NCBI GenBank assembly: GCA_963716205.1
Contig: OY970290.1
Location: forward strand, 584,823-648,822
Origin: an uncultured bacterium
GTDB lineage: Bacteria > Patescibacteriota > Minisyncoccia > Phycocordibacterales > GWA1-40-21
Direction of reading: 5' to 3'
Length of the DNA stretch: 64,000 bases
Part shown: positions 25,570-51,322 of the stretch, piece by piece
Numbering within the stretch: position 1 is the first letter of the stretch
Layout of the letters: the number at the start of each line of letters is the position of its first letter
The notes under the pieces: model-generated
What the model was told of the DNA's origin: nothing
Databases searched by the model: none
What the model saw: only the letters and a program-made list of their open reading frames with translations
Program-made: the position numbers and the translations under genes

Positions 25570-25658
25570 GGAGACGTGGCTGAGTGGTCGAAAGCGCCTC
25601 ACTGCTAACGAGGTGGACCCGTTAAACGGTCTCGTGAGTTCGAATCTCACCGTCTCCG
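25570..25658 (+). tRNA. tRNA-Ser (anticodon GCT), class II with long variable arm
   Basis: ggagacg...anticodon loop CUGCUAA...long variable arm ggacccgttaaacggtctc...T-arm gtgagTTCGAATctcac...cgtctccg. Confidence 0.8.
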
Positions 25659-25695
25659 CAGACGAAAATTCGCTGGCAAGCCAGCGAATTTTTAT

Positions 25696-26187: not shown

Positions 26188-26261
26188 AAAATAAATTATT
26201 TTTTGCTAATGCGGCGATTATATCATATTCACGATTTTCTGTGGAATGCTACAATGGTTCA

Positions 26262-28421
26262 ATGAATTTCAATTCCCCACTCGAGCCAATCGTTCGCCCA
26301 AATGAATTTGAAAAAAAAGCGCTCAAAAAGCTTGGTCTCAAAACCGTCGGCGATTTGCTCTATTATTTTCCCGCGCGCTACGGCGACACGTCGGAAAAAA
26401 GAAATATCGGAAGTCTTCTTACCGGCGAAAAAGCGGTAATCTTCGGCAAAATTTCCGGACTCAAAACAAGCAAAGGATTTCGGAGCAAAATCCCGATGTC
26501 GCAAGCAACGATTGAAGACGAGTCAGGAAAAATAAAAGCAGTGTGGTTCCACCAGCCGTACATAGCAAAAATAATCCATGATGGAGCATTCGTCCGCGCA
26601 GACGGAAAAGTCTCCGAACGGAAAGGAGAATTGTATTTTTCAAATCCAAAGATCGAAACAGTTACAAAACTTCCGATCGGCGTCGGCGATTCACTTTTCG
26701 GAAACGACGGCGAAGCGCATTCGCTTTATCCGGTGTATCCGGAGACGAAAGGCGTCACATCAAACTGGCTGTATCATAAAATACAGAAAATTTTCAGTTC
26801 GGAAATTCTCGATGCTTTGGAAGATCCGATACCGGAATATATTTTGGACGCGTATAATCTTCCGTCTCTGAAAACCGCGCTCGTCTGGATTCACATTCCG
26901 CAAAAACAAAATGATGCGCTCGCCGCGCGAAAACGATTTGCATTCGAGGAAATTTTTTTCATCCAGCTGCAGAAAAAGAAAGATAGGATGGCTTGGAATA
27001 AAAATCCTTCGTATGTCATTTCAAAAACTCCGGCGGAAATTGAAGCATTTACCAAACGATTTCCATTTGAGATGACCGATGCTCAACACAGTGCGATTGA
27101 AAAGATCCTTGGCGATTTCAAAGCCGGTCATGCGATGGCACGATTGCTTGAGGGCGATGTCGGTTCCGGAAAAACTGCGGTCGCCGCGGCAACAGCGTTT
27201 GCAATCATTTCTTCGCGGCCAGCTGGACAGACTTTTGGCAATCTGCAGGCCGCATACATGGTGCCGACCGAAATTCTCGCCAAGCAGCATTTCGAATCGT
27301 TCATCGAATATTTTACACATCTGGGAATTCAAGTCGGATTGATCACCGGAAAAGAATGCAGAAAATTTCCGTCAAAAGTAAATCCAAAAGGCTGGACAAA
27401 AATTTCCCGCGCGCAATTATTAAAGTGGGTTGCAAACGGCGAAATACCGATACTCATCGGCACGCATGTGCTCATCCAAAAATCCGTCAAATTCAAGCAT
27501 CTTGCATACGTCATTATTGACGAACAGCATCGCTTCGGCACTTTGCAAAGACAAAAGCTCACGCGGAAAGAAGGTCTCAATCCGCATCTTTTGTCTATGA
27601 CCGCAACGCCGATTCCCCGCACTTTATCGCTCACTCTCTATGGCGATCTCGATATCACTCTGCTTGATCAAATGCCTGCGGGCAGAAAACCGATTATTAC
27701 GGAAATTGTTTTGCCAAACAACAGAAATGAAACGTATGAAAAAATAAAAATTGCGCTTAACACCGGACGGCAAGCATATGTCATCTGCCCGAGAATCGAT
27801 GTTCCCGATCCTGAAAAAGAAATGGCGGTTATTGCAAAATCAGTCAAAGAAGAAGCAGAAAGATTGAAACGGGATGTATTTCAAAAATATGAAATCGGAA
27901 TTCTTCATTCTAAAATGCTTCAGAGCGAAAAAGAAAAAGTGATGCATGATTTCACATCGGGTAAAATAAAAATTCTTATCGCTACCTCGGTCGTCGAAGT
28001 CGGCGTCAACGTGCCGAATGCGACGATTATCATTATCGAAGGTGCGGAAAGGTTCGGTCTTGCCCAATTGCATCAGCTTCGCGGGAGGGTCTTGCGGAGC
28101 AATCATCAGGCGTACTGCTATGTTTTTGCGCAAGCGAAAACGGAAAAAACTCTGGAGCGGTTGAAAGCATTCAAAAAAACTTCCAATGGCTTTGAACTTG
28201 CCGAGTTTGATCTGAAACTTCGCGGTGCGGGAGAGCTTGCCGGCGGCAAGCAATGGGGCATTAGCGACATCGGCATGGAAGCGATACGAAATATAAAAAT
28301 GGTCGAAGCTGCGCGAAACGAGGCAGAGAAAATTTTACAAGAAGATGAAACTCTTTCGCAATTCCCTCTCATTGTTAAAAAGCTTGCTGAAAGAAAAACG
28401 GAAGAGATTCATTTTGAATAA
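26262..28421 (+). CDS. recG: ATP-dependent DNA helicase RecG
   Basis: Wedge/OB domain at the N-terminus, and helicase motifs I (DVGSGKT), II (DEQHRFG) and VI (QLRGRVLR). Confidence 0.85.
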   Translation: MNFNSPLEPIVRPNEFEKKALKKLGLKTVGDLLYYFPARYGDTSEKRNIGSLLTGEKAVIFGKISGLKTSKGFRSKIPMSQATIEDESGKIKAVWFHQPYIAKIIHDGAFVRADGKVSERKGELYFSNPKIETVTKLPIGVGDSLFGNDGEAHSLYPVYPETKGVTSNWLYHKIQKIFSSEILDALEDPIPEYILDAYNLPSLKTALVWIHIPQKQNDALAARKRFAFEEIFFIQLQKKKDRMAWNKNPSYVISKTPAEIEAFTKRFPFEMTDAQHSAIEKILGDFKAGHAMARLLEGDVGSGKTAVAAATAFAIISSRPAGQTFGNLQAAYMVPTEILAKQHFESFIEYFTHLGIQVGLITGKECRKFPSKVNPKGWTKISRAQLLKWVANGEIPILIGTHVLIQKSVKFKHLAYVIIDEQHRFGTLQRQKLTRKEGLNPHLLSMTATPIPRTLSLTLYGDLDITLLDQMPAGRKPIITEIVLPNNRNETYEKIKIALNTGRQAYVICPRIDVPDPEKEMAVIAKSVKEEAERLKRDVFQKYEIGILHSKMLQSEKEKVMHDFTSGKIKILIATSVVEVGVNVPNATIIIIEGAERFGLAQLHQLRGRVLRSNHQAYCYVFAQAKTEKTLERLKAFKKTSNGFELAEFDLKLRGAGELAGGKQWGISDIGMEAIRNIKMVEAARNEAEKILQEDETLSQFPLIVKKLAERKTEEIHFE

Positions 28422-28459
28422 ATTGCGAAAAGGTAATTTTTGATATACTATCTGCCCAT

Positions 28460-28533
28460 GCGCGTGTAGCTCAGCTGGTCAGAGCGCGAAGCTTATACCT
28501 TCGTGGTCCCTGGTTCGAATCCAGGCACGCGCA
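28460..28533 (+). tRNA. tRNA-Ile (anticodon TAT/UAU)
   Basis: gcgcgtgtagctcagctggtcagagcgcgaagCTTATACcttcgtggtccctggTTCGAATccaggcacgcgca. It folds as a clean cloverleaf with U33, anticodon U34-A35-U36 and A37. Confidence 0.7.
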
Positions 28534-28556
28534 CAAAATAAAGGCTATTTTTCTAC

Positions 28557-28745
28557 TTGACAAGAGTATTATTTGGTAATATAATGCGAAAACAAAGTAT
28601 GGCGGAAAATTTTGAACCAAAAGAAGAAATTTCAACGGAAAAAAAACCTGATATACTGGATGATAAATTTCGTGTTGAGGAAGTTTTTAAAAAATTGTCG
28701 GAATTAAGAAAGGTTCAAGAGAACACTCAGTCAAAATCTTTATAA
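28557..28745 (+). CDS. hypothetical small protein (AT-rich islet)
   Basis: 62 aa ORF in an AT-rich segment downstream of tRNA-Ile. Confidence 0.3.
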   Translation: MTRVLFGNIMRKQSMAENFEPKEEISTEKKPDILDDKFRVEEVFKKLSELRKVQENTQSKSL

Positions 28746-28766: not shown

Positions 28767-29084
28767 ATGAAACCCGAAAATATAAATAATAATGAAAAAC
28801 ATGAGCTTATTGGAGAAATTTTTGAAACTCAGGCAATGGCCGCAGAATTAATAAAATATGGAATCGGGATTGAGAATAAAGAACTTATTGATGATTTGAT
28901 ACAAAAAAGAGAATTTACAATTAATGAATTAGCTGGAAGTTTATCAGAACAAGAAGTGAATGAGTTAACTAGACCATATCTTGAGGAAAATGATGATAAT
29001 ATTCCTCTTGATTTTGATTCTCGTAAAAAATATTACGCAGCAAGAATTTTGATAAAAATTACAGAGAGTACGAAAGCAGCTTAA
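28767..29084 (+). CDS. hypothetical acidic protein (AT-rich islet)
   Basis: 105 aa, followed by a perfect palindromic terminator. Confidence 0.4.
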   Translation: MKPENINNNEKHELIGEIFETQAMAAELIKYGIGIENKELIDDLIQKREFTINELAGSLSEQEVNELTRPYLEENDDNIPLDFDSRKKYYAARILIKITESTKAA

Positions 29085-29140
29085 ATTCAATATTAAAAAG
29101 AGCGGCACCCTAGGGTGCCGCTCTTTTTAATATTGAATTG
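29084..29140. terminator. bidirectional Rho-independent terminator; about 54-nt perfect palindrome with 27-bp arms
   Basis: aattcaatattaaaaagagcggcaccc-tagg-gtgccgctctttttaatattgaatt, between convergent genes. Confidence 0.65.
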
Positions 29141-29146: not shown

Positions 29147-31108
29147 TTATACTTTCATTCCCGCCTGCTCGATCACCTCTTTCTTTTTCGGCACAATGCC
29201 GTTTGCAATCAAAAGCTTCTCGAATTCTTCGCGCTCAATCGTCTCGATTTCTATCAATCTTTGTGCGATAGCATCCAATGCTTTGCGGTGATCGGTGATT
29301 ATTTTCTGCGCGCGATTTTTATTGTCATTCATTATAGCTGAAACTTCCGCATCAATCTCGGCGCTGACTCTGTCAGAATATTCTTTGTCCTCGACTCCTT
29401 TGCCAAACATCGCCCGTCCGCCTTCACCTTCAAGCGCGACCGGACCGAATTTGTCGGACATTCCATATTTTGTCACCATATCCCTCGCAAGAGCCGTAGC
29501 AACCTGCAAGTCGTTTGAAGGACCCGTTGTCAGATCGCCAAAAATAGTTTTCTCCGCGACATATCCGCCGAGTGATACTGCAATGTCATCGAGAAATTCT
29601 TTTTTCGATTGCAATCTCTTGTCCTCAAACGGCAGATGAAGCGTGTATCCGCCGGCTCGTCCGCGGGCGATGATTGAAATTTTATGCACCGGATCCGCAT
29701 GAACGAGTACGGAAGACACCAGTGCATGCCCGGCTTCGTGATACGCGGTGATCTCTTTTTCTTTTTTGGAAAGAATATGACTCTTTCGCTCCGGACCCAT
29801 CATGACTTTTTCGATGGAACGAATCAGATCAAACTGGGAAACTTTCTGCCTGCCTTCCCGCGCCGCGAGAATGGCTCCTTCATTCATCAGCGAATACAAA
29901 TCCGCGCCGGAAAATCCCGGAGTCCTTTCCGCAATAACGCGCAAGTTCACGTCTTCGGCAAATGGTTTCTCTTTTGAATGGACTTTCAAAATTGCTTCGC
30001 GATCATTTCGATCCGGCAAATCAATAATGACTCTTCGGTCAAATCTTCCCGGCCTCAAGAGCGCGGTATCCAAAACATCCGGCCGGTTCGTCGCCGCCAT
30101 AACAATGACTTTTTCATTCTGCTCGAAGCCGTCCATCTCAACGAGAATCTGGTTTAGCGTCTGTTCACGTTCGTCATTGCCTCCGCCCATTCCGCCGCCG
30201 CGCACTCGTCCGACAGCATCAATCTCATCGATAAATATGATGGCTGGCGCTGCAGACTTCGCCATTTTGAACAAATCTCGCACGCGGGAGGCGCCGACTC
30301 CGACGAACATTTCCACAAATTCCGATCCGGAAATAGAAAAGAATGCGACTCCGGCTTCACCGGCAACAGCCCGCGCGAGCAAAGTCTTTCCCGTTCCCGG
30401 TGCACCCATCAAAAGAATTCCTTTCGGAATTTTTGCCCCGATATCAAGGAATTTTTTTGGATTTTTCAGGAAATCCACGACTTCCGTTAATTCTTCCTTT
30501 GCTTCTTTCGCTCCGGCAACATCAGCAAACGTCACGCGCTGTTTTTTGTCCGACGGTAAAATAATTCTCGCTTTTGATTGCCCGAAAGACATCGCCTGCA
30601 TGCCGGCACCTTTCATCTGCCGCGTGATAATCCAGATAAAAATTCCAATAATGACGAGCGGAATGACAAACGGCGCAAGATTGATAAACCAATATGAAAA
30701 ACCAGTATCGCTTTCAATCGTAATATCGACTTTATCAAGAGCAGCGGAATTCACTTTGTAATTCGCCAGAGTTTCCGTCAGTGCCACACCTTCTTCTTTT
30801 TTGGAAGTTTTCACGACCGGTGTTGAAGTCGCAGTCGTCGTCGCATACGTAATCGTCAGATCATCGCCCGAAACATTAATACTTGAAACAAGCCCGGAAT
30901 TGATATCACTCGCCACCTGCGAAATGGAAATCTGCTGGTTGGAACTTCCGCCGGAAAAAATCGCAGAATATAAAACAGATACGATAATAAGAATCAAAAT
31001 GGCATTTATTATTTTGGTGAACGAAGACATCGGTCCGCCAAATCTCGGCATTTTGCTTTTGTTTCCGTTTTGTTTTTTCGCCGGTTTTTTGTTTTTTTGA
31101 TTATCCAT
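29147..31108 (-). CDS. ftsH: ATP-dependent zinc metalloprotease FtsH
   Basis: Two TM helices, AAA+ Walker [15 protein letters not shown], and zinc motif HEAGHAL. Confidence 0.9.
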
Positions 31109-31165: not shown

Positions 31166-31612
31166 ATGGCACCATTTGCTCAAAACAGAAAAGCACATTT
31201 CAACTATGAAATCCTTGAGAAAATCACGGCGGGCATTGAACTCGTCGGTTTTGAAGTCAAAGCGATCAAAGCCGGTCGCATCACGCTTGATGGCGCATAC
31301 GTCATTATCCGCGGCGGAGAAGCATTCCTTGTTGGCACGCAAGTTACGCCCATTCAGCCGAAAAATACTCCGAAAGATTTTGACGAGCGAAGAAATCGCA
31401 AACTTCTTTTGACCAAAAAAGAAATCCCGCGTCTCGCCGGCATGGAAAACAAACAAGGATTGACAATCATTCCACTTTCAGTGTATAATATTGGATACAA
31501 GCTCAAAGTCGAGCTTGGCATTGCCAGGGGCAAAAAGAAAAGCGACAAGCGCGAATCAATAAAATCTCGCGAGTCCGCCCGGGAAATGGACAGGACATTG
31601 AAAGGAAAATAA
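31166..31612 (+). CDS. smpB: SsrA-binding protein
   Basis: 148 aa, ...NRKAHFNYEILEKITAGIELVGFEVKAIKAG..., with a C-terminal basic tail. Confidence 0.85.
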   Translation: MAPFAQNRKAHFNYEILEKITAGIELVGFEVKAIKAGRITLDGAYVIIRGGEAFLVGTQVTPIQPKNTPKDFDERRNRKLLLTKKEIPRLAGMENKQGLTIIPLSVYNIGYKLKVELGIARGKKKSDKRESIKSRESAREMDRTLKGK

Positions 31613-31613: not shown

Positions 31614-32017
31614 GGGGATGATCGGCCTAGACAATTGACCAATTATCCGTGCGGCAAAGTGGAGCAACCTTGTGAACTCCTAAATCTATCAAGGAAACTG
31701 TAAATGCTAAAAACATTTCTCAAAAAGTAGCGGGCGTTGCATCACCATTTATGGCGACCGTTCCTACTTTCGCTTACGCATTAGCCTAAGCGACATGTCA
31801 CCTGCTGACGTCTGATAGGTAGCGCGATGTGTAATATTTTCAGAATATATTTTATGAGTTCTCGGCGTAAAATGAAATTAGAGAATCGGATTATAAACAT
31901 TTTGTTTATTTCAAGTTTATAATCTTAAATTTGTCTTCGGACAAAAATAAATAAACTAGACTTTGTAGAAGCACTGCTAATAATCATTTGCACGGCGGTT
32001 CGATTCCGCCCATCTCC
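31614..32017 (+). ncRNA. ssrA: tmRNA (ssrA)
   Basis: Begins GGGGAUG and ends ...GGCGGUUCGAUUCCGCC-CAUCUCC-A. The 7-bp acceptor pairs 5' GGGGAUG with 3' CAUCUCC and includes the G3:U70 Ala identity pair. There is an internal ORF ...gct tac gca tta gcc TAA (...FAYALA*). It lies directly after smpB. Confidence 0.75.
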
Positions 32018-32912
32018 ACATACACGCTATTTGAGCCGCGCGATCGATAAAAGGCGACTCTATTCCTGCATATTCACTCGGTTCGAGTCGTGGACTTTCA
32101 GATCGTATACCATTCATTGTTTCGTCAATCAGCAAGAACGGTTTGAGCAATACAGCGCTTAGTTTTTTGTCCTTCAGTGTCCAGTTCGAGACAAAATACT
32201 CGACTATCTTTTTTTGGCTTATAAGGTCTCCTTTTTTAAACCACATCTTGGAATGATGGGCAAAAACAAAGATATTTTTTAGGGAGTCTTCCCAGTTTTC
32301 CTCTCGGCCTTTTGCCTTTTTCATCCACTTTAGGGCCTCGTCCCGTTCCGTTTCCAGTTTCTTTCTCCGGTCCAAATATTCCTTGTCGGTAATTAGTTCA
32401 CGAATTCTCATATCTGTAAGGACCTCTATAGATTTTTGGGCTTTGTCATGAACTCCTTCGAGGTTCCCCATCCTAACCTTAAGGGTTTCATTATCCGTTT
32501 GCCGAATACGTTCAATCCCTTGGCGCACCCAGAATACGAAGCGTTTCGGAATATGAATTCGTTCCAAGAAGTCAGCAATTTGAGCTTTTAGACTTGGAAG
32601 GGTGATCGAAGATTGAGAACACTTGTTCTTGCCCTTCTTATTTGTGCAGTGATAATAGGTGTAGGAACGAGTTTCACCAGTACCCTTGATGAGTTTTGTT
32701 TTTTCTTCCGCCGTAACCATGTAACCGCATTCCCCGCAACGAATGGTTCCCGTGAAAGCGAATTCGTGGGTCTTGGGGCGAGGCTTTCCTTCGCGCCCTA
32801 GAATTTCCTGCACCCAGTCAAATTCATCTTGCGAGACCAGGCGCTTATATTTATGGGGATATGCTTCCCCTTTTCTTTTCATAAGACCGCAATAGAATGG
32901 GTTTGTGAACAT
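31977..32912 (-). pseudogene. large serine recombinase remnant: C-terminal recombinase tail, zinc beta-ribbon and coiled coil only; no resolvase catalytic domain
   Basis: ...NPFYCGLMKRKGEAYPHKYKRLVSQDEFDWVQEIL... then IRCGECGYMVTAEEK...YTYYHCTNKKGKNKC (zinc ribbon) and a coiled coil. The ORF 3' end overlaps the tmRNA 3' end by about 40 nt (stop at 31977, tmRNA ends 32017). No in-frame catalytic domain exists upstream. Confidence 0.5.
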
Positions 32913-32926
32913 CTTATAACGATAAC

Positions 32927-33208
32927 GTGGGGAAAGAAAAGAAGAACGATTTGGTATATGAATATGATCTTCGATACATGCTATCAACCCGAGAAGGCAT
33001 GTTAGCCCGAGATTTGGCTGAAGGATTAAACGACAAAAAAAGTCTCCGTTTTTACTTCTCGATGGCCTTGGAACACTCAGAGAAATATTTGAGAGAAATC
33101 TACCGCAAGACCATGGAGACACCAGAACATAAGATTAAAAAATCTCGTGGAGCACTCTTTTCTTACCTCATAAAAAAGTATGAACACTTTGACACTATTG
33201 ACTATTGA
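32927..33208 (+). CDS. hypothetical protein
   Basis: 93 aa ORF. It occupies the position where the recombinase N-terminus would be, on the other strand. Confidence 0.25.
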   Translation: MGKEKKNDLVYEYDLRYMLSTREGMLARDLAEGLNDKKSLRFYFSMALEHSEKYLREIYRKTMETPEHKIKKSRGALFSYLIKKYEHFDTIDY

Positions 33209-33647
33209 TCCAGGTGCTAGATTCTGGGGAGTCTCTGTTTTTCACGGGAGAAACTTCAACATCTCCTTTATAAAGAAGCTTTCTACAAAAGCTTCTCCTA
33301 GAAACAGACTCTGCAAGACCAGGAGGTTATTTCTCACCCTTTGCAAGAAGTATGGTCCCGACATCCTCATCATTGAAAAACCCTATAAATTCTGGGAAAA
33401 GCAATCCCAATATCTAGGAAGGATCATTGGAGAGATAAAACGGCTTGCTAGGAAGGAGCGAATAAAAGTGATCGAGTATTCTCCTAGAACTGTCCGGAAA
33501 GTGGTCTGTAATGATAAAAATGCAACTAAAGAGGGTATAGATGATGCCGTCTGTAGGTTCTATCCAGAGTTAAAGACGTACCTAAATGAGAGCCGAAACT
33601 ACAATGACAAATATTGGGGTCGCATGAAAGTCTTGTGGAACAACTAA
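33180..33647 (+). CDS. RuvC-like Holliday-junction resolvase (phage/mobile-element type)
   Basis: 155 aa. LLTIDPGARFWGVSVF matches the RuvC motif (I)LGIDPG..G. ...ILIIEKPY... carries the catalytic Glu, and ...VIEYSPRTVRKVVCNDKNATKEGIDDAV resembles the RuvC helix region. Confidence 0.55.
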   Translation: MNTLTLLTIDPGARFWGVSVFHGRNFNISFIKKLSTKASPRNRLCKTRRLFLTLCKKYGPDILIIEKPYKFWEKQSQYLGRIIGEIKRLARKERIKVIEYSPRTVRKVVCNDKNATKEGIDDAVCRFYPELKTYLNESRNYNDKYWGRMKVLWNN

Positions 33648-33994
33648 TGATTGAACAACGACTTGGCGAAGGTCAAGGCTTGGACGGGTGTTTAAATGTT
33701 TACAACAAACTAATAGATTTAGATGATTTATCAACAGCTTTAATTTTCGATTACATCATGGCCGACGAAGTTAATCACGTGGAACGTGGAAATTATTGGA
33801 TTAGATATCTGCTTAAAGGAAATGAGGTAGCAATACAATCCTTGGAAGCGCGAACACGTATAAAATTATTGAAATTGGGTTTGGATCTTTCCGTTCCAAT
33901 TCCAGTGAACGTTCGCGGGCGTCGTCTCGCCGGGTTCACTGATGAAGAAATCAGTAAATGCCAAACAGCGGAATTTGACACCCAACAATATTGA
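33647..33994 (+). CDS. hypothetical protein, translationally coupled to the RuvC-like gene (TAATG overlap)
   Basis: 115 aa, ...IMADEVNHVERGNYWIRYLL... Confidence 0.3.
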   Translation: MIEQRLGEGQGLDGCLNVYNKLIDLDDLSTALIFDYIMADEVNHVERGNYWIRYLLKGNEVAIQSLEARTRIKLLKLGLDLSVPIPVNVRGRRLAGFTDEEISKCQTAEFDTQQY

Positions 33995-34064
33995 CAAAAG
34001 ATCGAATTTAACAATAATACTTTTATTACTAATTATTTTAAAATAAACAGAAGGGGTAAAAAAA

Positions 34065-34238
34065 TGAAAGCTAAATCTTCCGCGGTGAAAAAAAAAGTTA
34101 ATCCTTCCAACTTAAAGTTCTTAACTCATGTTTCTAAATTGACGAAAGCATTACAGTCAAACAATCGTGAAGCAGAAAAAATAATTAAGCAATTAAAAGC
34201 CCTTCGTCCCTTCCCCATGCCAAGCACCTGGTAGTCAA
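34065..34238 (+). CDS. small hypothetical protein with strong RBS
   Basis: 57 aa (MKAKSSAVKKKVNPSNLKFLTHVSKLTKALQSNNREAEKIIKQLKALRPFPMPSTW), preceded by AAGGGG 7 nt upstream. It is below the ORF-track length cutoff. Confidence 0.25.
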
Positions 34239-34297
34239 GGACTGTTTGCCCCAGGACTTCGACAATAGGCCTTCCCAAAATTTTAGGTGGTGAACAA

Positions 34298-35026
34298 TTA
34301 TTCTTTTTCAAGAATAGCAACGTAGGAAGAACCTGCAGAAGTTAAAATATTTTTTATTTTCCAACCGGTTCCTTTCACAATATTTTTCATTTCGTTTTTT
34401 GAAACTAATAGGTAATTAAACCAATCACCGATATAGTTTTCGAATCGGACTCGTATTCGAAGTTGGCCTGCCATTCGTCCCCTCCTTTTGTTCAATTTAA
34501 GATATGACAAATGTGCGGAATTACTTGTTTTATATGGGTCATTGCTTTCAGCAATAATAAAAGCTTCTGGTTTAGTGATTTTATAAATGGCTTTTAATAA
34601 GGATTTAGCTTTTTTAAAACTCCCAAACAAACCAAAGTTGTTGCCGTACATGACAATCGTATCAAATGAATTTCTTTGGAGAGTATGAATCTTTTCAATT
34701 GGAAGAACCTGCGTTTTTGTTATGCCCCTTGCTTTGCATACTTTAATTGCGAGAGGTGAGTTATCTATCGCTGTGACATCGAGACCTTTTCTTTGAAGAT
34801 ATAGCGCAACTCTTCCCGCGCCGGTGCCCACATCAAGAATTCTTCCCTTGGCAAATACTATTGCTTTCTTCTGTTGAGTTGGCCAGTTTTTAAAATCTTG
34901 AAAATACGCTGGAGAACCCGTTGATAATCCAACATAACCATCATCTCGTTCGATGAGTTCGTAAGACTTTTTTCTTTTGAAATAAGCCCATATTTCTTGC
35001 CCATATGCATCTTTATCAAAATTCAT
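34298..35026 (-). CDS. class I SAM-dependent methyltransferase
   Basis: Motif I ILDVGTGAGRVALYL, plus acidic post-I and motif II. Confidence 0.7.
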   Translation of the reverse strand: MNFDKDAYGQEIWAYFKRKKSYELIERDDGYVGLSTGSPAYFQDFKNWPTQQKKAIVFAKGRILDVGTGAGRVALYLQRKGLDVTAIDNSPLAIKVCKARGITKTQVLPIEKIHTLQRNSFDTIVMYGNNFGLFGSFKKAKSLLKAIYKITKPEAFIIAESNDPYKTSNSAHLSYLKLNKRRGRMAGQLRIRVRFENYIGDWFNYLLVSKNEMKNIVKGTGWKIKNILTSAGSSYVAILEKE

Positions 35027-35376
35027 TATAAAAAAATATTATGAGGTCTGGTGTACTTGTTATTAAGCACCGCTCTCGTTAGCCGAATTGTACCTTTGTA
35101 ATGCCAGAATTGCAAATTCCTAACTGGTCACATTTAGTGCAATAATTATTATAAAAAAAACATCGGCATTCATTAAAATTGGGCAAAACAAGGTCCGTTC
35201 CAAAGTTATATATTTTTAAGTATTGTTCTTTCCATAATTTTTTTGTTTGAAACGAAACTAAATATTATGATGAAGTTCATTATGTAAAATAAAAAAGGAG
35301 GGCAATCTTATGGCAACTCTCAAAAAAGAAGTCATCGTTGGCTGTTATTGAAAATCCATCTTGAAAGGTGTCCGCC

Positions 35377-35862
35377 GTGAGAATCAAATATCTTGTTTTG
35401 GTTATTATTCTGTCAGTTTCAAACGCATTTGCTCAAGACGGTAATTCACAGGACGTTATTTATTTAAAAAATGGTCGCGTGGTAAAAGGAACGATTGTTG
35501 AAAAATCGCCCGGAGGGAAACTTACAATTCGGACTTGGAGTGGATACAAGTTCACTTATAAAAAATCGGAGATTAGTAAGATTGAAAAAGAAGAAACAGG
35601 GAAGGATGAAGAGCAGGCAGATCAAAACGAGTCAAAGCCAACCACTAAAAATCGGGGCCATGTAATCGATAATTTATACGGCGATTCAAAGTATTTTATC
35701 CAGGTTTCCCGGCACATTCAGAAATTCAGTTACTTGACTCCACCACCACCTACTCCCGTACCGCCGGTGTCACCGATTTGTTTCGATTTGGAGATAACAA
35801 TTCCCTTGGAGTTAAACTTTATTGTCGCGGATTGGGTATCTACTCCTGACCCGATGCCATAA
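35377..35862 (+). CDS. hypothetical secreted protein with Pro-rich tail
   Basis: Signal peptide MRIKYLVLVIILSVSNAFA. The C-terminal 40 aa overlap the convergent lipoprotein gene. Confidence 0.35.
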   Translation: MRIKYLVLVIILSVSNAFAQDGNSQDVIYLKNGRVVKGTIVEKSPGGKLTIRTWSGYKFTYKKSEISKIEKEETGKDEEQADQNESKPTTKNRGHVIDNLYGDSKYFIQVSRHIQKFSYLTPPPPTPVPPVSPICFDLEITIPLELNFIVADWVSTPDPMP

Positions 35863-36098
35863 ATTCCACTAGAAACCTTCGTAAATGAATAAATGAAACT
35901 CGATGTTCCATCTTCATTTTCCAATTCTTGATTGGGTGAACCGAGTAGCTCCACTACATCTTCCTTAGTACTTACACCTTTTTTGATTTGTGAATACGCA
36001 CTTTGGTCGATCTGATGGCCCAAAGTAGTTACGCACCCCGTTATAAGACTGCTTGCAAAAGAAAAAATTAGCGAACACAGAATAAATCTCCGTAACAT
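35730..36098 (-). CDS. lipoprotein, SmpA/OmlA (BamE)-like domain with Gly-rich tail
   Basis: MLRRFILCSLIFSFASSLITGC lipobox, then ...SKEDVVELLGSPN... Confidence 0.4.
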   Translation of the reverse strand: MLRRFILCSLIFSFASSLITGCVTTLGHQIDQSAYSQIKKGVSTKEDVVELLGSPNQELENEDGTSSFIYSFTKVSSGIYGIGSGVDTQSATIKFNSKGIVISKSKQIGDTGGTGVGGGGVK

Positions 36099-36258
36099 TA
36101 TTCGTCTCCTTTTCGAAGTTATATAAACCAAAGTTCTCAATTAAGAACCTTCAAGGACAAAAAGGGGCCTAAATATGTTCTTTTTTGAGAACCTTAATAT
36201 AGCAATAAAGTTCTTAGTTGAGAACGTTTATTTTCGTATTGATTTTAATAATGGGGGC

Positions 36259-36465
36259 ATGTCAATACATGCGAAACGAGTCTCGAAAAACCTGAGGAAA
36301 ATGATTGTTGATAGTGGTATGAGCGCAGAAAAAATTGCTCAAGGGGCAGGCATTTCTAAATCACAGATTTCCTACTACTTGAATAGCACTCGAACACCTA
36401 CCATTCAAACCTTAGAGAAAATATCGGATTTCCTGAAGCGGGATTTTCAGGATTTTTTCAGATAA
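36259..36465 (+). CDS. XRE-family helix-turn-helix transcriptional regulator
   Basis: MSAEKIAQGAGISKSQISYYLNSTRTPTIQTLEKISDFL, an HTH_3 pattern. It is convergent with the restriction-modification operon. Confidence 0.5.
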   Translation: MSIHAKRVSKNLRKMIVDSGMSAEKIAQGAGISKSQISYYLNSTRTPTIQTLEKISDFLKRDFQDFFR

Positions 36466-36472
36466 TAGAAGT

Positions 36473-37429
36473 TCAGTGTTTCGAATATGGCCCTAAGAAT
36501 CGGGTTCCATTGAAGTGAATCATGTGGGAAGGATTTTCCGCAACCCATACTTCGGTTTCCCACGCAATCACGGAGAGGTATTTCGTCATTATTGATTTCG
36601 TCGGGAACGCAGTCACAAACACGAGTCCTGCCGTGCAGCCTGAAAACATTTTCTTGAGTTCTTCATGCCGCTTGGCATCCATCGGTCCATGACTTGTTAC
36701 CGACTCCACGAGGACCAGCCAGTTTTTATCAGGATAATAAATTACAACATCAGGCATTTTCCCGTGGGAATCAACAGTAACACCGAGCTTCGCCAATGAC
36801 TTTTCATCAAAAGATGCCCACTTCTTACCAGTATCACCCACATAGACAACTTGAGCGCCGGGGACGAAACGAGAACCAAACTCTTCCACGATAGCCTTGA
36901 TAAGCTGGCTATGTTCCCCAGGACTTAGTTTGATCTCATTACCAGGAGTAATCTTTAAGGCTACTTGTTTCAAATCACGTTCTGCCGCATATTTTTTCGC
37001 CAACTCTGTTTTTATCAAAAGGTATTCTTTAACCTTTTTACTCCACCGCGAAGTGCCGTAACTTTTTACTAACTCAAACGCTTCCGGGGAAATCTGATAT
37101 ACCGCTTTGGGGCTATTTACCGAACGTTCAGGTTCATCGGGGTTATACATAGCAAGTCCAGCTTGGACAAATTGATGGATAGTAAAACGACGAAATGTCT
37201 CTCTGCTGTTGGGAGCATATTTTTTTCCATATGCCTTCAAACTAAAGTCCATCATGGGCGTAATGCCCATGAGTGGCGTAGATGCGTCCTTCCACTCCGT
37301 AGTTTTCTTTAGATTGAGCAAAGCCAAAAGGCAAAGTGCCGACCGCTCATTTATCTGTTCTTTCGGCATTCCAACTTCAGTGAGGATCTTTAACGCATCT
37401 TCGATATGTTCGTGTTGTTTTTTGTTCAT
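36473..37429 (-). CDS. type II restriction endonuclease (PstI/BsuBI-family-like, inferred)
   Basis: 318 aa. Its start overlaps the stop of the upstream DNA methyltransferase by 4 nt (ATGA). The size and N-terminal wHTH-like region fit the BsuBI/PstI family. The assignment rests mainly on context. Confidence 0.45.
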   Translation of the reverse strand: MNKKQHEHIEDALKILTEVGMPKEQINERSALCLLALLNLKKTTEWKDASTPLMGITPMMDFSLKAYGKKYAPNSRETFRRFTIHQFVQAGLAMYNPDEPERSVNSPKAVYQISPEAFELVKSYGTSRWSKKVKEYLLIKTELAKKYAAERDLKQVALKITPGNEIKLSPGEHSQLIKAIVEEFGSRFVPGAQVVYVGDTGKKWASFDEKSLAKLGVTVDSHGKMPDVVIYYPDKNWLVLVESVTSHGPMDAKRHEELKKMFSGCTAGLVFVTAFPTKSIMTKYLSVIAWETEVWVAENPSHMIHFNGTRFLGPYSKH

Positions 37430-38904
37430 TGGATTGATTTTACCATTTTATCAACATCTCCCTGATTAGCAGTTCTATTCGATTTTGCCATTTTGCCGAG
37501 AACTCTGAGCGCTTCAATCGGTGGATATTTCAAAGAGCGAAGATCGGTCGCATTTACTTGCGTATGTCCGTTGAATTCCCTGAAATATTTGTCAACACCA
37601 GATGAGTTCAAATACATCGTTAGACCCCGCGCTACATTTTCTTCAAGGCCTGTTTTCTTAATGTGAAAAACATTTAGATGGTTTTCAAAACCAAGTCTTT
37701 TGGCTTTAATTTCTTTGGGCGAAAGAAGAGCTGCGCTTATACGCTTTTTCTCCTCTTTGGAAGAAAACCTTTTTACCAAAACATAAAACCCTTTTGGAAA
37801 AAGCATTTTTTTCGTTTCATCGTCTAGTGAGATGGCATTAGATTTTCGGATCTCTTTTTTGGGCCATTTCACTGAGTTACCATCAAAGTGCGCTGGATAC
37901 AATAGTGGAGCATCACCTTTTAAAGGCATTTTGTGAAGATTGTCTTTTATACGAAAATCAACCACCGGCCCCGTCGATACTTCTATACCAATTTCTTTGA
38001 GACTACATTTGTCAGTATTCGAGTTTTCCAATGAATTCTTTTTGATTTCAGTAGGAATATGGATGAACGATTCCTCATCCAACGGATTAAGGATTTGTCC
38101 AATATCACATTTGAATTGTTTCAAGTCTGAAAATGAAGAGTCGGAAGATATTGAAATTAAAACTTCTTTTGAAATCCGTCCTTTAACCAAATGGAAAATA
38201 ACGTTTTCTTGAAGAACTCCGTCATCCTTGAATGCCCGTTTCCTTGAATCAAATAAATGAATAGTTTTAATCGCCGTTTTCTTAAGTAAAGATTTTCGAA
38301 ACGATCTGTAGTAAGGGCCGTTGCAAAAACTTCGAGGAATGATAACTACTAATTCGCCACCTTTCGCCATTTTATTTACTGCCACTTCTACGAAGGCAGA
38401 ATAAAGATTCACTGTCTCTATTCCCATTGTTCGAAGCATTTCTCTATGTTCAGAATCACTGTGAATTTTCTTGTAAGGAGGGTTTAGGATCGCATGAGTA
38501 TAGTTTGGTGATTCTGATTTCCATGAATTTCTTACCGCATCAACAATGAAATCATCGTTGTAAATTCGATATTCAAAACGACCATTGGATTTGTTCTTTT
38601 GAAAACTGTTAAAATTATTTTTGAGATACGCCGCTAAGTCGTTGTCTATTTCAAATGCATCAACATATATTTTGGGCTTTAGTCTCTTAAGAGAACTCCA
38701 TCTTTCAAGAAAAGCGAATGTTAAGGAACCGATACCTGCACCCGCATCAAGTAATTTGATTTCCCTATTGGTAAACTTGGAAAAAAGTGACGCCATGAAT
38801 GCGCCCACAGGAGCAGGTGTCATAAACTGACCAAGTGCCGACTTTACCACCGGGTCAAGTGCCTTAGAAACCTCTTGCCTTTTTTGGTCAACTATTTGGA
38901 GCAT
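37426..38904 (-). CDS. N6-adenine DNA methyltransferase, gamma class (M.PstI/BsuBI/Eco57I-like)
   Basis: Motif I LDAGAGIGSLT precedes motif IV NPPY (AILNPPYKKI), and a large C-terminal target recognition domain follows. Confidence 0.75.
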   Translation of the reverse strand: MLQIVDQKRQEVSKALDPVVKSALGQFMTPAPVGAFMASLFSKFTNREIKLLDAGAGIGSLTFAFLERWSSLKRLKPKIYVDAFEIDNDLAAYLKNNFNSFQKNKSNGRFEYRIYNDDFIVDAVRNSWKSESPNYTHAILNPPYKKIHSDSEHREMLRTMGIETVNLYSAFVEVAVNKMAKGGELVVIIPRSFCNGPYYRSFRKSLLKKTAIKTIHLFDSRKRAFKDDGVLQENVIFHLVKGRISKEVLISISSDSSFSDLKQFKCDIGQILNPLDEESFIHIPTEIKKNSLENSNTDKCSLKEIGIEVSTGPVVDFRIKDNLHKMPLKGDAPLLYPAHFDGNSVKWPKKEIRKSNAISLDDETKKMLFPKGFYVLVKRFSSKEEKKRISAALLSPKEIKAKRLGFENHLNVFHIKKTGLEENVARGLTMYLNSSGVDKYFREFNGHTQVNATDLRSLKYPPIEALRVLGKMAKSNRTANQGDVDKMVKSIQ

Positions 38905-39114
38905 TTGTTCTCATTTTTCTTAATTCTAATAATCATTACTTTATGCAGTTACCACAAGCGCAGATTAAGTATACATCTGTTTACCAAAATTCAAAATCTC
39001 ATTTCCAGAAGACTGACTCGATAATCCGACTTCAAAAACTCTTTGAATTCTTTCATCTCTCCTAGCCCTTTATTTTAGGTAATATACAATATAAGTTATG
39101 GCAGACTATCGAAT

Positions 39115-40627
39115 ATGACGATTCCAAATTACATCACGCCAATCACGAAGATCCACTCTACTTTCAAAGAAGCCAAAGGTTTTTTTGATACGTATGGGGG
39201 TATATCGATCTTTGATGACGAGCCGAGACTCGATGTTGTAGCTCTCACGCAAGGAAAGCGCAATCTCGTGGTAGGCGAGCCCGGTGTCGGTAAAAGCCTG
39301 TTGCTTCAGGTCGTCAAAGAACATCTTGATCAAGAGAAATATGCCACTGCCATCATTAGCCTTCGTGATCCAGATGCAATTAAACAAATAGACGAATTTT
39401 TGAATTCTCCTTTCCAAACCCAAAAAACCTTACTACTTGATGCACTCGATGAAGTTAAGGCGAACTTATTTCCATCGCTACTCCAAAAAATCGAAGACAT
39501 TTCTGCTAAATATCCGGACATTTCGATTTTTCTCTCCTGTAGGTGGGTATTCATCAGTCGATATACAAATTCATTTCCCGCATTTCGCTTCATCACAATT
39601 TCTCCTTTTACCCGCAGACAAGTAAAAATGTATCTCATTGGGTCTCCAATTTTTTGGTGATCCAACAGTCATTGACGAATTGCCCGATCTCACTAATTCG
39701 GAAGAACTGATACTCACAAGCCAATATAAGCGGTGGGAAGAAGAACAATCCAAAACTGCATCAAATAACACGGAAGAAACTGCTGAAGAGCTTTTGAAAG
39801 AATTTCGTACTTTACTTGAACCCGAACCGGGAAAATTTAAAACTAATGTGTTTCAATTCTACAATAGACATTCGAATGAAATTACTTCACGACTTACAGA
39901 TAATGATCGCGAGCGAATTATAAATCTTCTTTCAAATACAGTTTTTAAATTCATGGACCCAGGCCAATACGGTATCACAATCACTTCAGAAAAAAACGGT
40001 TCACACACTTTCACCGTAGCTGACACGATACATATTTTTGGTGATGCAATCGTGACCGCGGAACACATCGGAATGAACATAACTCCCTTTCGACAACAAA
40101 TTCTCAATTTCATACCGTTTACATTTGGAGATAATCTGACCACCATCTTTAATTTGGTGAAAAACATTCGGCCCGAAGAAATGACACCCATTATTGAAGT
40201 TTATCGAAAACGTCATTCAGATTTGTGGCGGCATAACCCCCATAGTTTTGTTAAAGCTGTGGAGCAGTATCACATCTCAGAAGCCATACCTGTTTTGAAA
40301 ACCTTGATATTTGAATCAAAATGGGAAATGCAAGTTAGAAATGCCGCCTTACCAGTGATCGATTCCCTTGCACCAGATATAGATTTTCTTAGACAAGTCG
40401 TCGCAAGGTACAAAGATAGTACAGATAACGAAGAGAAAAAATTAGCAGACATCGCGAATGGTTTGCTCATTACTAACTATGCTGATGCTGACGCAGTGCA
40501 TTGGCGTTTAAAAAAAATCGTTGAGCGAGCAGCCGCCTTCATTAAGCCGAGAGGACCGCACGCGCATATGGTAGGCGGCTTGGAGGAAGAAATTTCATTT
40601 GGAAAGACATTTGCAAAACCGTTATAG
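39115..40627 (+). pseudogene. STAND/NACHT-like P-loop NTPase, split by a +1 frameshift in a T6 run (39650-39655) into a 181-aa NTPase part and a 329-aa C-terminal part
   Basis: Walker A VVGEPGVGKSLLL, Walker B LLLDALDEV, and a sensor-like SCR. ORF1 ends ...IGSPIFW*. ORF2 continues in the +1 frame from a TTG. Deleting one T fuses them into a protein of about 510 aa. Confidence 0.45.
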
Positions 40628-40815
40628 ATAATGCTGGAGCTAAAAACATGATCGGCATCAAAGAAGCTTTCCAAAACATAAAAGGTGTATGGGTTTTGTC
40701 GTTTAACTGCCACGATAGTGTGACAGCCCAAAAGAAGAAAAAGGTCCTAAAAACAAAAAAACGAGCTGACCATACCGGTCAGCGTAGAAAGAAGTAGCAT
40801 ATTCGAGTGTAGATA

Positions 40816-41325
40816 CTATCTTTCGTCCACTACTCGAAATTTTCTAGGTATATCAGATGGTCGTGCATATCGTTCGGAACGTGGACCATTTACGGTTTCA
40901 TCTAACGCCTTTGCGCCAGGTCTCGTTCCCCGTCTTTCAAGAGCGTTAATCTTTTTCGCTTGTTCCCTAATCCTGACGAACGAAAGATTTATCTCGATGT
41001 GCGTGCCTTTGTCATTCCTGCATGAATAGGAATCATAGATAAATTTCTTGTCAAAATACGGATATAAAATACGATAAATCACATGATGCAGAAGTCTGTC
41101 TCGCACGACCGCCTTGTGTATGCTTCTCGGTTTCGGATCGTTGATAGCAAATGCTTTATAGCCGGAATGAACGTATGTTTTGTTTTTCAAATCATCATGC
41201 AGACTTGCAATATTTTTTGAGAGTTGAAGCGCATATTCTGCCACATCATTTTTATATCGTTTGTCAGAAACAAATTCCCGCCATGCTTGGTGAATATTTG
41301 TCAGAGATATGATAGTATCGTACAT
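40816..41325 (-). pseudogene. DGR-type reverse transcriptase, N-terminal fragment (motifs 1-2 only; no YxDD)
   Basis: MYDTIISLTNIHQAWREFVSDKRYKNDVAEYALQLSKNIASLHDDLKNKTYVHSGYKAFAINDPKPRSIHKAVVRDRLLHHVIYRILYPYFDKKFIYDSYSCRNDKGTH follows the DGR/retron RT pattern (...FRDRVVHHAL...SYACRKGKGTH). After this point the ORF diverges and stops, and a terminator hairpin lies at 40758-40782. Confidence 0.6.
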
Positions 41326-41360
41326 GTTGGAAAAAATACTATACCACAAAAATACCATGA

Positions 41361-41732
41361 ATGTTGCCCCCCCCCCGCAAATCGCCAGTTGTCGTTGCAA
41401 AAGAAAAAGAAGCGTATCAATTTTGGCTTAGTCTCCACAGAAATTTTCCCAAGTCTGAACGCTTTGGTATCGGACAGAAAATAGAAAATACGTTTTTAGA
41501 CATTTTAGAATATAGCTTTGCATCAGTGTATCTGTCGCCGGAACCGAAAATTATCTTGCTCACAAAGACAATATCAAAACTAGATACCTTGAAATTCTTT
41601 GTTCAGCTTGCTTGGGAAAGTAAACTGATACCGGAAGAAAAATACATTGAATTTTCTGAAAAATTAGAGGAAATTGGAAAAATGCTCGGCGGATGGAAAC
41701 GCGGATTGCAACAAAAAACTCCCGCCAAATAG
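41361..41732 (+). CDS. avd: Avd-like four-helix-bundle protein (DGR accessory variability determinant)
   Basis: ...FPKSERFGIGQKIENTFLDILEYSFASVY... and ...KLDTLKFFVQLAWESKLIPEEKYIEFSEKLEEIGKMLGGW match the four-helix-bundle (23S rRNA IVS protein / bAvd) family. It sits between the TR and the RT gene on the opposite strand. A C10 run lies at 41367-41376, right after the start codon. Confidence 0.55.
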   Translation: MLPPPRKSPVVVAKEKEAYQFWLSLHRNFPKSERFGIGQKIENTFLDILEYSFASVYLSPEPKIILLTKTISKLDTLKFFVQLAWESKLIPEEKYIEFSEKLEEIGKMLGGWKRGLQQKTPAK

Positions 41733-41750
41733 ACGGGAGAAAATGAATGA

Positions 41751-41866
41751 GTTTCGGAACCACGATCCGATGCCTGTTCTCGGCATTCCAGACGTTGTCG
41801 TTCGACAAACGATTGACGTTCACGTTGAGCCCATCGGAGTTCACGTTCACGTTCGCCACGAAATTT
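41751..41866 (-). repeat. DGR template repeat (TR), 116 nt
   Basis: Near-identical to 42204-42319. On the minus (sense) strand it encodes NFVANVNVNSDGLNVNVNRLSNDNVWNAENRHRIVVPKL with 10 AAY Asn codons. Confidence 0.7.
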
Positions 41867-42199
41867 TGTGCAATGTTCCTCCTATTCCACCATCCGCCAA
41901 ACCATGACAGATTGTATCTTATGCGGGACCTCAAAGTCCTCTGAAATATTGCACCAACTTTATTTATTTTTATAAGATATCCGTATCATCCACTCTTTTA
42001 CAAGACGTATCCGGTAAAATTCTCAAACGATACAGACATGCAATTGCAGTCTCAAGCCGTAGCCGGAGACATCTAGAATTGCTTTTTCATTATATATGAA
42101 AAATAAAAAATTAAAATAAAAAACCCCTCGATCCTGCTTGCGCAAAATCGAAGGGTCAAAGTGTCCAAGTCCCAAAGGGACAAGAACGAAGTGTTGAAG

Positions 42200-42922
42200 T
42201 TACAGTTGCGGAACCACGACCCGAGGCCTGTACCCGGCATCCCAGACGTAGTCGTAAGACAAACGAAAGACGTGCACGTAGAGCCCATCGGAGTACACGT
42301 CCACGTCCGCCACGAAATAATCCTTCCCAACTTTGAAGAGGAAGAAAGTTCCGTAACCATCGGTACGAAGCCACTTGGCGTGCTTCTTGCAGAACTGCTT
42401 GATCTGGGCCTGAGTCAGACACAGACGATCGAGGTTTTCTCCAAAACTTCCGAAGATCGCCTTGAAGTCGCCGTCCTGCGTCATCTCAAACACGTGGGTT
42501 TTCACCCGCTTGGTCGCTTCAGCCGGAACATCAAGACCCCAGTTTTTGAAGTCGGAGTCGATATAATCGGGGAAAACGTCCTTGGCGTTCGCGATAGTTT
42601 CCGTGCCGTCTGTCGGATCAAGAACGGTGTCCTTGCCGAGAGAAATGCACGTGAGATGGCTGGTTTTGAGCTCGATGGATTCGGCAAAGAATTTTTCCAT
42701 CGCATCCTCGATCGCCGAATTGAGCTTGCCATCCGCTTGAATCCGCTGAACAGCCGATCTGTCGAGGGCTTTCGAAAACTTGCTAACCGCCCTCTTTACC
42801 CCTCTTCGTCCGGCTTTCTCGCCCCGACTCACGAGATCCTTCATCTGCTCGGATGTAATCAATGACTTAGCCATTGTTATCATCCTCCTTTTCTGAATTT
42901 TACTTCGCGTGGTTTTCACCAC
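42200..42922 (-). CDS. DGR target protein; VR at extreme C-terminus (CLec/FGE-like tail ...GYRPRVVVPQL)
   Basis: 240 aa. The last 38 aa (YFVADVDVYSDGLYVHVFRLSYDYVWDAGYRPRVVVPQL*) are encoded by the VR. Confidence 0.55.
   Translation of the reverse strand: MVKTTRSKIQKRRMITMAKSLITSEQMKDLVSRGEKAGRRGVKRAVSKFSKALDRSAVQRIQADGKLNSAIEDAMEKFFAESIELKTSHLTCISLGKDTVLDPTDGTETIANAKDVFPDYIDSDFKNWGLDVPAEATKRVKTHVFEMTQDGDFKAIFGSFGENLDRLCLTQAQIKQFCKKHAKWLRTDGYGTFFLFKVGKDYFVADVDVYSDGLYVHVFRLSYDYVWDAGYRPRVVVPQL
42204..42319 (-). repeat. DGR variable repeat (VR), 116 nt
   Basis: 17 mismatches against the TR. 16 of them lie at positions where the TR sense strand has A. Confidence 0.7.
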
Positions 42923-43271
42923 AGCTTTGAATTGACCTGTTGGATCAGCTCAAAGCTGTAGTGAAATACAACTGTTTTTAAGGTTCTTATCTACTTACAA
43001 TTGTACACCTTTTTAATATATCTGTCAAGAATAGCTATACTCCCTTAGAAATAAGCTAGATTTGGCTATGATACTACATATTTTTTCAGATCCGGAATAT
43101 AAATATACCTATTCTCTTCCTGAAAAATCGTACGGACTGCCATCACGGTGTCCCACATTAAAAAATAAACTCATATTCATAAATATGAGTTTATTTTTTT
43201 AAAATCTTGACACCAATATAATATATGTGTTAGTATTCTAACAAGTTGCTCTTACAAAAAAGGAGAACCGC

Positions 43272-50935: not shown

Positions 50936-51322
50936 TTATTTCAATGAAATTTTTCCTCCTGCTGCCTCAACATCTTTCTTGAGTTTCTCGGCATCTTCCT
51001 TTTTCATATCTTCTTTTAAGACCGAAGGAGCTGCATCAACGAGATCCTTGGCTTCTTTTAAACCAAGTCCGAGGACTTCCTTGATCGCTTTGATGACGGC
51101 GATCTTCTGCGCGCCGGCATCTGTCAATTCAACTTTGAATGACGTTTTCTCTTCTGTTGGAGCTGCGGCAGCTGCAGGACCGGCGACGGCGACTGCTGCG
51201 GCTGAAACACCGAACTTCTCTTCGAGCACTTTGACGAGCTCGTGGAGATCAATAACTGACATTTTTTCTATTTCTGCAACGATTTTTTCAAATTTTGCAG
51301 GAACTGCTTTTTTCTCTTCCAT
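50936..51322 (-). CDS. rplL: 50S ribosomal protein L7/L12
   Basis: Ala-rich hinge and C-terminal ...[20 protein letters not shown]... Confidence 0.9.

Follow-up and report, generated by a model that had tools for sequence, protein, structure and literature searches.

The window, by which we mean the whole 64-kb stretch of DNA analysed here, has a GC content of 39–45% and a gene set typical of the Candidate Phyla Radiation (CPR). It encodes a type IV pilus cluster (12–23 kb), GatCA, LigA, MltG, RecG, FtsH, SmpB and tmRNA, together with a restriction-modification pair, ribosomal proteins and EF-G/EF-Tu. The window FtsH is 63–75% identical to its best relatives, which come from metagenome-assembled genomes (MAGs) labelled Candidatus Taylorbacteria, Minisyncoccia, Nomurabacteria, Kaiserbacteria, Paceibacterota and Patescibacteria group. 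The sequence thus points to a Taylorbacteria-like host among the Patescibacteria (Parcubacteria/Paceibacteria). ARAGORN reported four RNA genes in the window, namely tRNA-Met(cat), tRNA-Ser(gct), tRNA-Ile(tat) and tmRNA. These genes and their relevant neighbours are:

3677–3749, minus strand: initiator tRNA-fMet(CAU), from ARAGORN, Rfam and alignment with the three CAT classes of two related loci (L049 and L075)
25570–25659, plus strand: tRNA-Ser(gct), from ARAGORN
26241–28421, plus strand: recG, the upstream neighbour of the tRNA-Ile(UAU) gene (NCBIfam RecG, 728 bits)
28441–28449, plus strand: TGATATACT, a possible extended −10 element, found by eye 11 nt upstream of the mature 5′ end of tRNA-Ile(UAU)
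28460–28533, plus strand: tRNA-Ile(UAU) gene, from ARAGORN, Rfam RF00005 and covariation over 36 sequences
28492–28498, plus strand: anticodon loop CTTATAC (C32 U33 U34 A35 U36 A37 C38)
28494–28496, plus strand: anticodon TAT (U34 A35 U36), read from the sequence
29147–31108, minus strand: ftsH, the conserved linkage partner of tRNA-Ile(TAT) (NCBIfam FtsH, 793 bits)
31166–31612, plus strand: smpB, on the upstream side of ftsH
31614–32021, plus strand: tmRNA, on the upstream side of ftsH (ARAGORN, as 31614–32019; Rfam)

The original prediction was a clean cloverleaf with the anticodon loop C-U-U-A-U-A-C (U34 A35 U36 A37), and ARAGORN, Rfam and the sequence itself all agree with it. ARAGORN placed tRNA-Ile(tat) at 28460–28534 on the plus strand with the anticodon at position 35, in the register and with the anticodon and isotype that had been claimed. 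The Rfam model RF00005 matched 28460–28533 over its full length with 71.7 bits (E = 1.1e-13; gathering score 29) and zero non-canonical pairs. The tRNA is 74 nt long up to the discriminator A73, leaving CCA unencoded, and reads GCGCGUG UA GCUC AGCUGGUCA GAGC G CGAAG CUUAUAC CUUCG UGGUC CCUGG UUCGAAU CCAGG CACGCGC A. Its stems are GCGCGUG/CACGCGC (acceptor), GCUC/GAGC (D), CGAAG/CUUCG (anticodon) and CCUGG/CCAGG (T). The conserved tRNA positions U8, A14, G18-G19 and U33 and the GTTCGAATC T-loop are all present in addition to a score above the gathering threshold, and the fold of the single sequence (z = −3.1) is more stable than all 200 shuffles.

In E. coli, the identity elements of tRNA-Ile comprise A73, A37, C4-G69, U12-A23, A38 and C29-G41. 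Measured against this set, which may not be that of the present clade, tRNA-Ile(UAU) has A73, A37, C4-G69 and U12-A23, while position 38 is C and the pair 29-41 is A-U. A37 is a potential t6A site. Position 34 is T and not the C34 that characterises the tRNA-Ile2(CAU)/TilS system, and TilS itself is absent within the window.

Because a consensus scan gave no TTGACA/TATAAT pair with 16–18 nt spacing before the tRNA-Ile(UAU) gene, the extended −10 element can be proposed only tentatively; alternatively, the tRNA might be transcribed by read-through from recG, whose stop codon lies 38 nt upstream. A perfect TTGACA-17-TATAAT promoter is found at 28557–28585 (plus strand), 24 nt past the tRNA. Behind it lie two open reading frames of 48 codons (28599–28745) and 105 amino acids (28767–29084), neither of which matches a family, and a 20-bp hairpin (29088–29135) between the convergent genes closes the region 3′ of the tRNA.

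Several other features of the window were recorded alongside. The tmRNA encodes a long tag of 27 residues (AKNISQKVAGVASPFMATVPTFAYALA); the tags of relatives have 18–28 residues, many share an SPYF motif, and the last residue is mostly A and in a few cases V. A 381-residue open reading frame (31977–33122, minus strand) overlaps the 3′ end of the tmRNA and has similarity only to the C-terminal portion of large serine recombinases. Beyond it extends a stretch with a GC content of 0.39 containing a RuvC-like open reading frame, a methyltransferase, an HTH protein and a BsuBI/PstI-type restriction-modification pair (36473–38904). The region 31977–43000 looks like an island integrated at ssrA, although a search for a direct repeat of att type matching the tmRNA 3′ end, which would delimit it, found none. 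The ribosomal genes at 50936–59674 (minus strand) have the unusual order S12-S7-EF-G-EF-Tu-S10-L3-L4-L23-L2, followed by an L10 leader (51859–51982, directly after L2; Rfam 51 bits), L10 and L7/L12. S19, L22, S3 and others are absent after L2, as are rpoB/rpoC after L7/L12. The S12 gene occupies 59258–59674.

The only CAT tRNA gene reported in the window had been proposed to encode a tRNA-Met rather than tRNA-Ile2. This was right because the gene at 3677–3749 has the sequence characteristics of an initiator, which sets it apart from both tRNA-Ile2 and elongator tRNA-Met: an A1xA72 mismatch, A11:U24 within a GAGC/GCUC D-stem, and the pairs G30:C40 and G31:C39. Its anticodon arm, UCAGG-CUCAUAA-CCUGA, is identical to that of the initiator-type CAT tRNA of locus L049 and close to that of L075, and its D arm likewise is identical to that of CPR initiators. 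We note that the mismatch is A1xA72 in place of the usual bacterial C1xA72, and that the anticodon stem (A29:U41, G30:C40, G31:C39) holds only two G:C pairs where three are canonical. In L049, the CPR initiator has this same anticodon stem and has kept C1xA72.

The original prediction had named rarity of AUA as an observation that would speak against it. AUA is not rare in the window: ATA accounts for 259 of 18,410 codons (14.1 per 1000) and 16% of the isoleucine codons in 73 non-overlapping open reading frames. The meaning of the codon was assessed by comparing ftsH codons of the lineages carrying a TAT tRNA with the residues at aligned positions of outgroup orthologues. The outgroup residue is isoleucine at 40% of ATA, 43% of ATT and 42% of ATC codons, and at ATG codons it is methionine in 35% and isoleucine in 11%. 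As judged from these alignments, AUA is in ordinary use as an isoleucine codon and signs of reassignment are absent. The median share of ATA among isoleucine codons is 23.5% in TAT loci and 10% in tilS-adjacent loci; both groups have a median GC content of 0.447, and the samples are small with overlapping ranges.

To place the gene in an evolutionary context, we collected 80 loci around relatives of FtsH and found tRNA-Ile(TAT) downstream of ftsH in 31 of them. The distance from ftsH has a median of 425 nt, and 25 of the 32 tRNAs share the strand of ftsH; in the window, the ftsH stop codon is 613 nt from the tRNA, and the two genes are on opposite strands. Base pairs of the standard cloverleaf were counted in an alignment of 31 TAT sequences (the window and 30 orthologues) and five CAU relatives. 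In these 36 sequences pairing holds in 99.0% of the cells, and both partners have changed in 18 of 21 pairs. Covariation scores 0.79, compared with 0.18 for shuffled alignments (0 of 500 reach 0.79) and at most 0.15 when the partners are slid by one to three columns, and covariation is present in all four helices. TAT is the anticodon in every one of the 32 orthologues. The compensatory stem changes, the conserved ftsH linkage and the invariant anticodon together identify tRNA-Ile(UAU), at the level of sequence, as a functional gene under purifying selection, neither a pseudogene nor a chance match. Its description as uncommon therefore needs qualification: it holds for bacteria generally (Taniguchi et al, 2013; PMC3575796), whereas within this lineage, with 31 related species, the UAU tRNA is the rule.

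The 32 TAT genes carry three anticodon loops, CTTATAC (27 genes), CTTATAA (4) and CTTATAT (1). C38 is thus found in 27 of 32 TAT genes including that of the window, and all 32 CAT tRNAs examined have A38, as do the CUUAUAA loops of L031, L045, L052 and L053. We regard C38 as a derived state and speculate that it has a role in codon discrimination or in recognition by isoleucyl-tRNA synthetase (IleRS). As a separate observation, the 1-72 and 2-71 pairs flip jointly in 11 of 35 distinct tRNA sequences, and a C1-G72 start (CCGCCC.../...GGGCGG) replaces the usual G1-C72 in the tRNA-Ile(TAT) of L008, L009, L012–L015, L017–L020, L022 and L023.

The neighbourhood of ftsH differs in lineages outside this group. 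In 12 non-TAT outgroup loci, from Kazan, Peregrini-, Moran- and Doudnabacteria, a “Parcubacteria group” MAG and some Chloroflexi, tilS lies directly upstream of ftsH, on the side that is filled by smpB and tmRNA in the window. The PP-loop open reading frames at this position are TilS, with TIGR02432 scores of 185–197 bits against a cut-off of 93.6. Their database matches carry PF01171, several of them also PF09179, and those named by their source are mostly tRNA lysidine(34) synthetase TilS with a few listed as “hypothetical protein”. The full arrangement tilS-ftsH-tRNA-Ile2(CAU) occurs in distant CPR lineages (Moran-, Doudna- and Peregrinibacteria, Kazan) and in some Chloroflexi. Ile2-like tRNA(CAT) genes are located behind ftsH in L030, L046 and L054, and L049 (Kazan) has three CAT tRNAs, one of each class, just upstream of tilS. 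The CAT tRNAs adjoining tilS or ftsH have the anticodon arm GCGAC-UCAUAAU-CGC in common, which we take to be that of E. coli ileX (tRNA-Ile2). The position next to ftsH is not universal for tilS, which is missing there from many non-TAT loci (Uhr- and Magasanikbacteria, most Chloroflexi).

A second sample, obtained with a query alignment of four TilS sequences, comprised 80 further metagenome loci centred on TilS. These loci contain 21 CAT tRNAs, all of them Ile2-like, and 36 tRNA-Val(GAC), but not a single TAT tRNA. Conversely, neither HMM searches for TilS open reading frames nor tblastn searches for remnants found tilS in the window or in 589 kb of the 32 TAT loci, while 12 of 12 positive controls were recovered, and tRNA scans detected no CAT tRNA in any TAT locus. 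With TAT in 0 of 92 tilS loci and tilS in 0 of 32 TAT loci, the two states are mutually exclusive in the loci seen. In a neighbour-joining tree of FtsH, which as a distance tree of a single gene is to be read with caution, the TAT loci all fall into a single clade that excludes every tilS-adjacent locus. L025 is nested within the TAT clade, and its contig stops 80 nt past ftsH. The ftsH-downstream slot is occupied by tRNA-Ile2(CAU) in tilS lineages and by the UAU tRNA in the TAT clade. In the more basal TAT loci L027, L045, L048, L052 and L053, tRNA-Val still follows tRNA-Ile(TAT), as in the tilS lineages. The tRNA sequences are indistinguishable in this respect, the mean identity of TAT tRNAs being 0.644 to Ile2-like CAT tRNAs, 0.641 to tRNA-Val(UAC) and 0.639 to tRNA-Lys(CUU), so that it is gene position that suggests descent from Ile2(CAU).

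Two annotated Paceibacteria genomes were inspected for the genes of both systems. In 603 of the 1306 annotation rows of the cultured Minisyncoccus archaeiphilus, we found no “lysidine”, “TilS” or PF01171. The Paceibacterales bin PMX_810_sub, which is incomplete, shows no PF01171 in at least 819 genes, with a single tRNA-Ile(gat) and no more than two tRNA-Met(cat) listed among them (PMC10936435 Table S2). Since ftsH is absent from this bin, the region with the TAT gene is probably missing as well. A PMX_810_sub gene named “tRNA(Ile)-lysidine synthase” by Prokka is not accepted as TilS: PF01171 is lacking, the best UniRef match is an N-acetyl sugar amidotransferase, and the gene is placed amid polysaccharide genes. 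Neither the window nor the 82 loci fetched contain ileS; the class-I synthetase matches there were LeuRS (L028) and ValRS (L052). The IleRS of both Minisyncoccus archaeiphilus and PMX_810_sub carries PF19302/DUF5915, which we take to mark the type-2 (archaeal/eukaryote-like) C-terminus. In PMX_810_sub the enzyme (PMX_810_sub_00382, K01870) is apparently fused to a histidine-phosphatase (GpmB-like) domain, and the gene of 3504 nt was named phosphoglycerate mutase by Prokka (PMC10936435 Table S2).

The reading that best accommodates these data is that tRNA-Ile(UAU) is a lysidine-independent AUA decoder of the Mycoplasma mobile/Bifidobacterium/Neorickettsia kind, which would be fixed across one clade of at least 31 species. 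We consider it probable, from sequence comparison, that this is a functional minor isoleucine tRNA which reads AUA directly by Watson–Crick U34-A pairing with no TilS/lysidine route, and we infer that the source genome has neither tilS nor tRNA-Ile2(CAU). The genome might instead be redundant, with tilS and tRNA-Ile2(CAU) encoded elsewhere and the UAU tRNA an extra, possibly minor, reader of AUA. The data cover a 64-kb window, beyond which both genes could be situated; tilS does not always adjoin ftsH in CPR or Chloroflexi; and both systems exist together in Lactobacillus casei, L. plantarum, Cyanothece and Ferrimonas (PMC3575796). Because such coexistence is documented, we retain redundancy as an unlikely but appreciable possibility. 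It does not readily explain, however, why the UAU tRNA fills the very slot of Ile2(CAU) downstream of ftsH, why the two states exclude each other across 92 tilS and 32 TAT loci, and why the TAT state is fixed in a single clade of the FtsH tree. The partial annotations of the two Paceibacteria, lacking PF01171 and in one case with only two CAT tRNAs, also argue against it. A modification of U34, such as pseudouridine or another uridine derivative, could confer AUA specificity and IleRS recognition. In eukaryotes a type-2 IleRS goes together with pseudouridine at both position 34 and position 36, and a possible modification of the UAU anticodon has been suggested for M. suis (PMC3575796); the IleRS of Paceibacteria appears to be type 2 in the two annotated relatives. 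Nevertheless, U34 was unmodified in both bacterial cases analysed chemically, M. mobile and a B. subtilis suppressor, and no candidate for a U34-modifying enzyme is encoded in the 64-kb window, a small part of the genome. A modified U34 is a serious contender that we still find doubtful; the two analysed cases suggest by analogy that an unmodified U34 may pair with A3 of AUA.

Far less probable are two further explanations. AUA might be reassigned, for example to methionine as in many mitochondria, with the tRNA carrying another amino acid. The CPR is known for one codon reassignment, that of UGA in Gracilibacteria and Absconditabacteria. For AUA, Ile, Val and Leu stand opposite ATA codons in the proportions seen for ATT and ATC and unlike ATG, and A73, C4-G69 and U12-A23 fit the E. 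coli isoleucine identity set, which makes reassignment very improbable. Still less credible is that the gene is a pseudogene or the cargo of a phage or mobile element. A recombinase fragment and the low-GC island at the tmRNA, 3.5 kb away, might hint at a mobile origin. The island, however, lies on the far side of ftsH, smpB and tmRNA, and ftsH linkage kept in 31 species, compensatory stem changes and an invariant anticodon would hardly be expected of either.

Returning to lysidine-independent decoding, the data are most simply explained if the common ancestor of the Paceibacteria TAT clade replaced the lysidine system by a genomic UAU tRNA. The ftsH-linked Ile2 gene would have undergone a C34-to-T change in situ and the adjacent tilS would have been deleted, a scenario made attractive by the fact that the UAU gene occupies the Ile2(CAU) slot downstream of ftsH. 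We lean slightly towards the view that the Paceibacteria crown group (Taylor-, Nomura-, Kaiser- and Jorgensenbacteria, Minisyncoccales) abandoned lysidine in this manner, passing from tilS-ftsH-tRNA-Ile2(CAU) to ftsH-tRNA-Ile(UAU) by an in situ C34-to-U change with deletion of tilS, and that a later A38-to-C38 change may tune the tRNA against AUG misreading. The tRNA would be charged by the IleRS of the clade, for which a type-2 C-terminus is seen in the two annotated Paceibacteria; this kind of enzyme takes U34-type anticodons in eukaryotes and is also found in Bifidobacterium and Neorickettsia. Misreading of AUG by U34-G wobble would be curbed by competition from tRNA-Met together with features of the tRNA or the ribosome, the derived C38 being a candidate for such a feature.

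TilS is regarded as near-universal and essential in bacteria and has been discussed as an antibacterial target. If the replacement holds genome-wide, AUA is decoded with no lysidine in much of the CPR, and dozens to thousands of species would constitute a natural system of repeated sampling. In such a system one could ask how a U34 tRNA avoids misreading AUG, which IleRS features accompany it, and how a tRNA/enzyme pair is replaced through a single point change in the anticodon. In practical terms, annotating CAT tRNAs of these genomes as Ile2 should be avoided, and a MAG that lacks tilS should not be regarded as incomplete on that account; the label tRNA-Ile(TAT) will already be given to the genes by routine annotation pipelines. 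In a literature search of incomplete coverage, no paper emerged that connects CPR, Patescibacteria or Parcubacteria with lysidine or tilS. Decoding of AUA independently of lysidine, with a genomic tRNA-Ile(UAU), is known already, and it is the clade-wide scale and the contrast of tilS-ftsH-tRNA(CAU) with ftsH-tRNA(UAU) that are worth following.

The precedents invoked in the original prediction, a few Mycoplasma, Bifidobacterium and other lineages lacking tilS, agree with Taniguchi et al (2013), who counted nine tilS-less species with tRNA-Ile(UAU) in three clades (PMC3575796). The canonical tRNA-Ile2(CAU)/TilS system shares with the present case the task of reading AUA as isoleucine and, in the CPR, the ftsH neighbourhood. 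It has C34 and A38 and needs TilS, whereas here we find U34, mostly C38, and no TilS in any TAT locus examined.

Among the natural counterparts, Mycoplasma mobile tRNA-Ile2(UAU) is similar in its genomic TAT and A37, in decoding with no lysidine and apparently no tilS, and in belonging to a small reduced genome. In that species U34 is unmodified, A37 carries t6A, the IleRS is adapted and the ribosome helps to reject AUG (PMC3575796). The M. mobile IleRS is of type 1, with Arg for the wobble-contacting Trp, whereas the two annotated relatives, as distinct from the genome studied here, indicate a type-2 C-terminus for Paceibacteria. M. mobile is moreover a single species, in contrast to a clade of many species with C38 in 27 of 32 genes that is known from sequence alone. 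The tilS-less Bifidobacterium and Neorickettsia possess a eukaryote-type IleRS, and the eukaryotic enzyme accepts a minor tRNA-Ile with a pseudouridine-A-pseudouridine anticodon, that is, a modified UAU (PMC3575796). They resemble the present case in combining a UAU tRNA and a type-2 IleRS (here in annotated relatives) with the lack of tilS (here presumed), but they belong to other phyla and represent independent origins, and the ftsH linkage with a sister arrangement tilS-ftsH-tRNA(CAU) is specific to the CPR.

The closest experimental parallel is the B. subtilis suppressor of a tilS deletion, tRNA-Ile1 G34U, in which a UAU tRNA with unmodified U34 replaces lysidine; it binds AUA strongly and AUG weakly, little AUG is misread, and a single point mutation in the anticodon suffices (PMC3919564). 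That replacement arose in the laboratory from the major GAU tRNA, whereas the one proposed here would be natural, fixed and, by its position, derived from the minor CAU gene.
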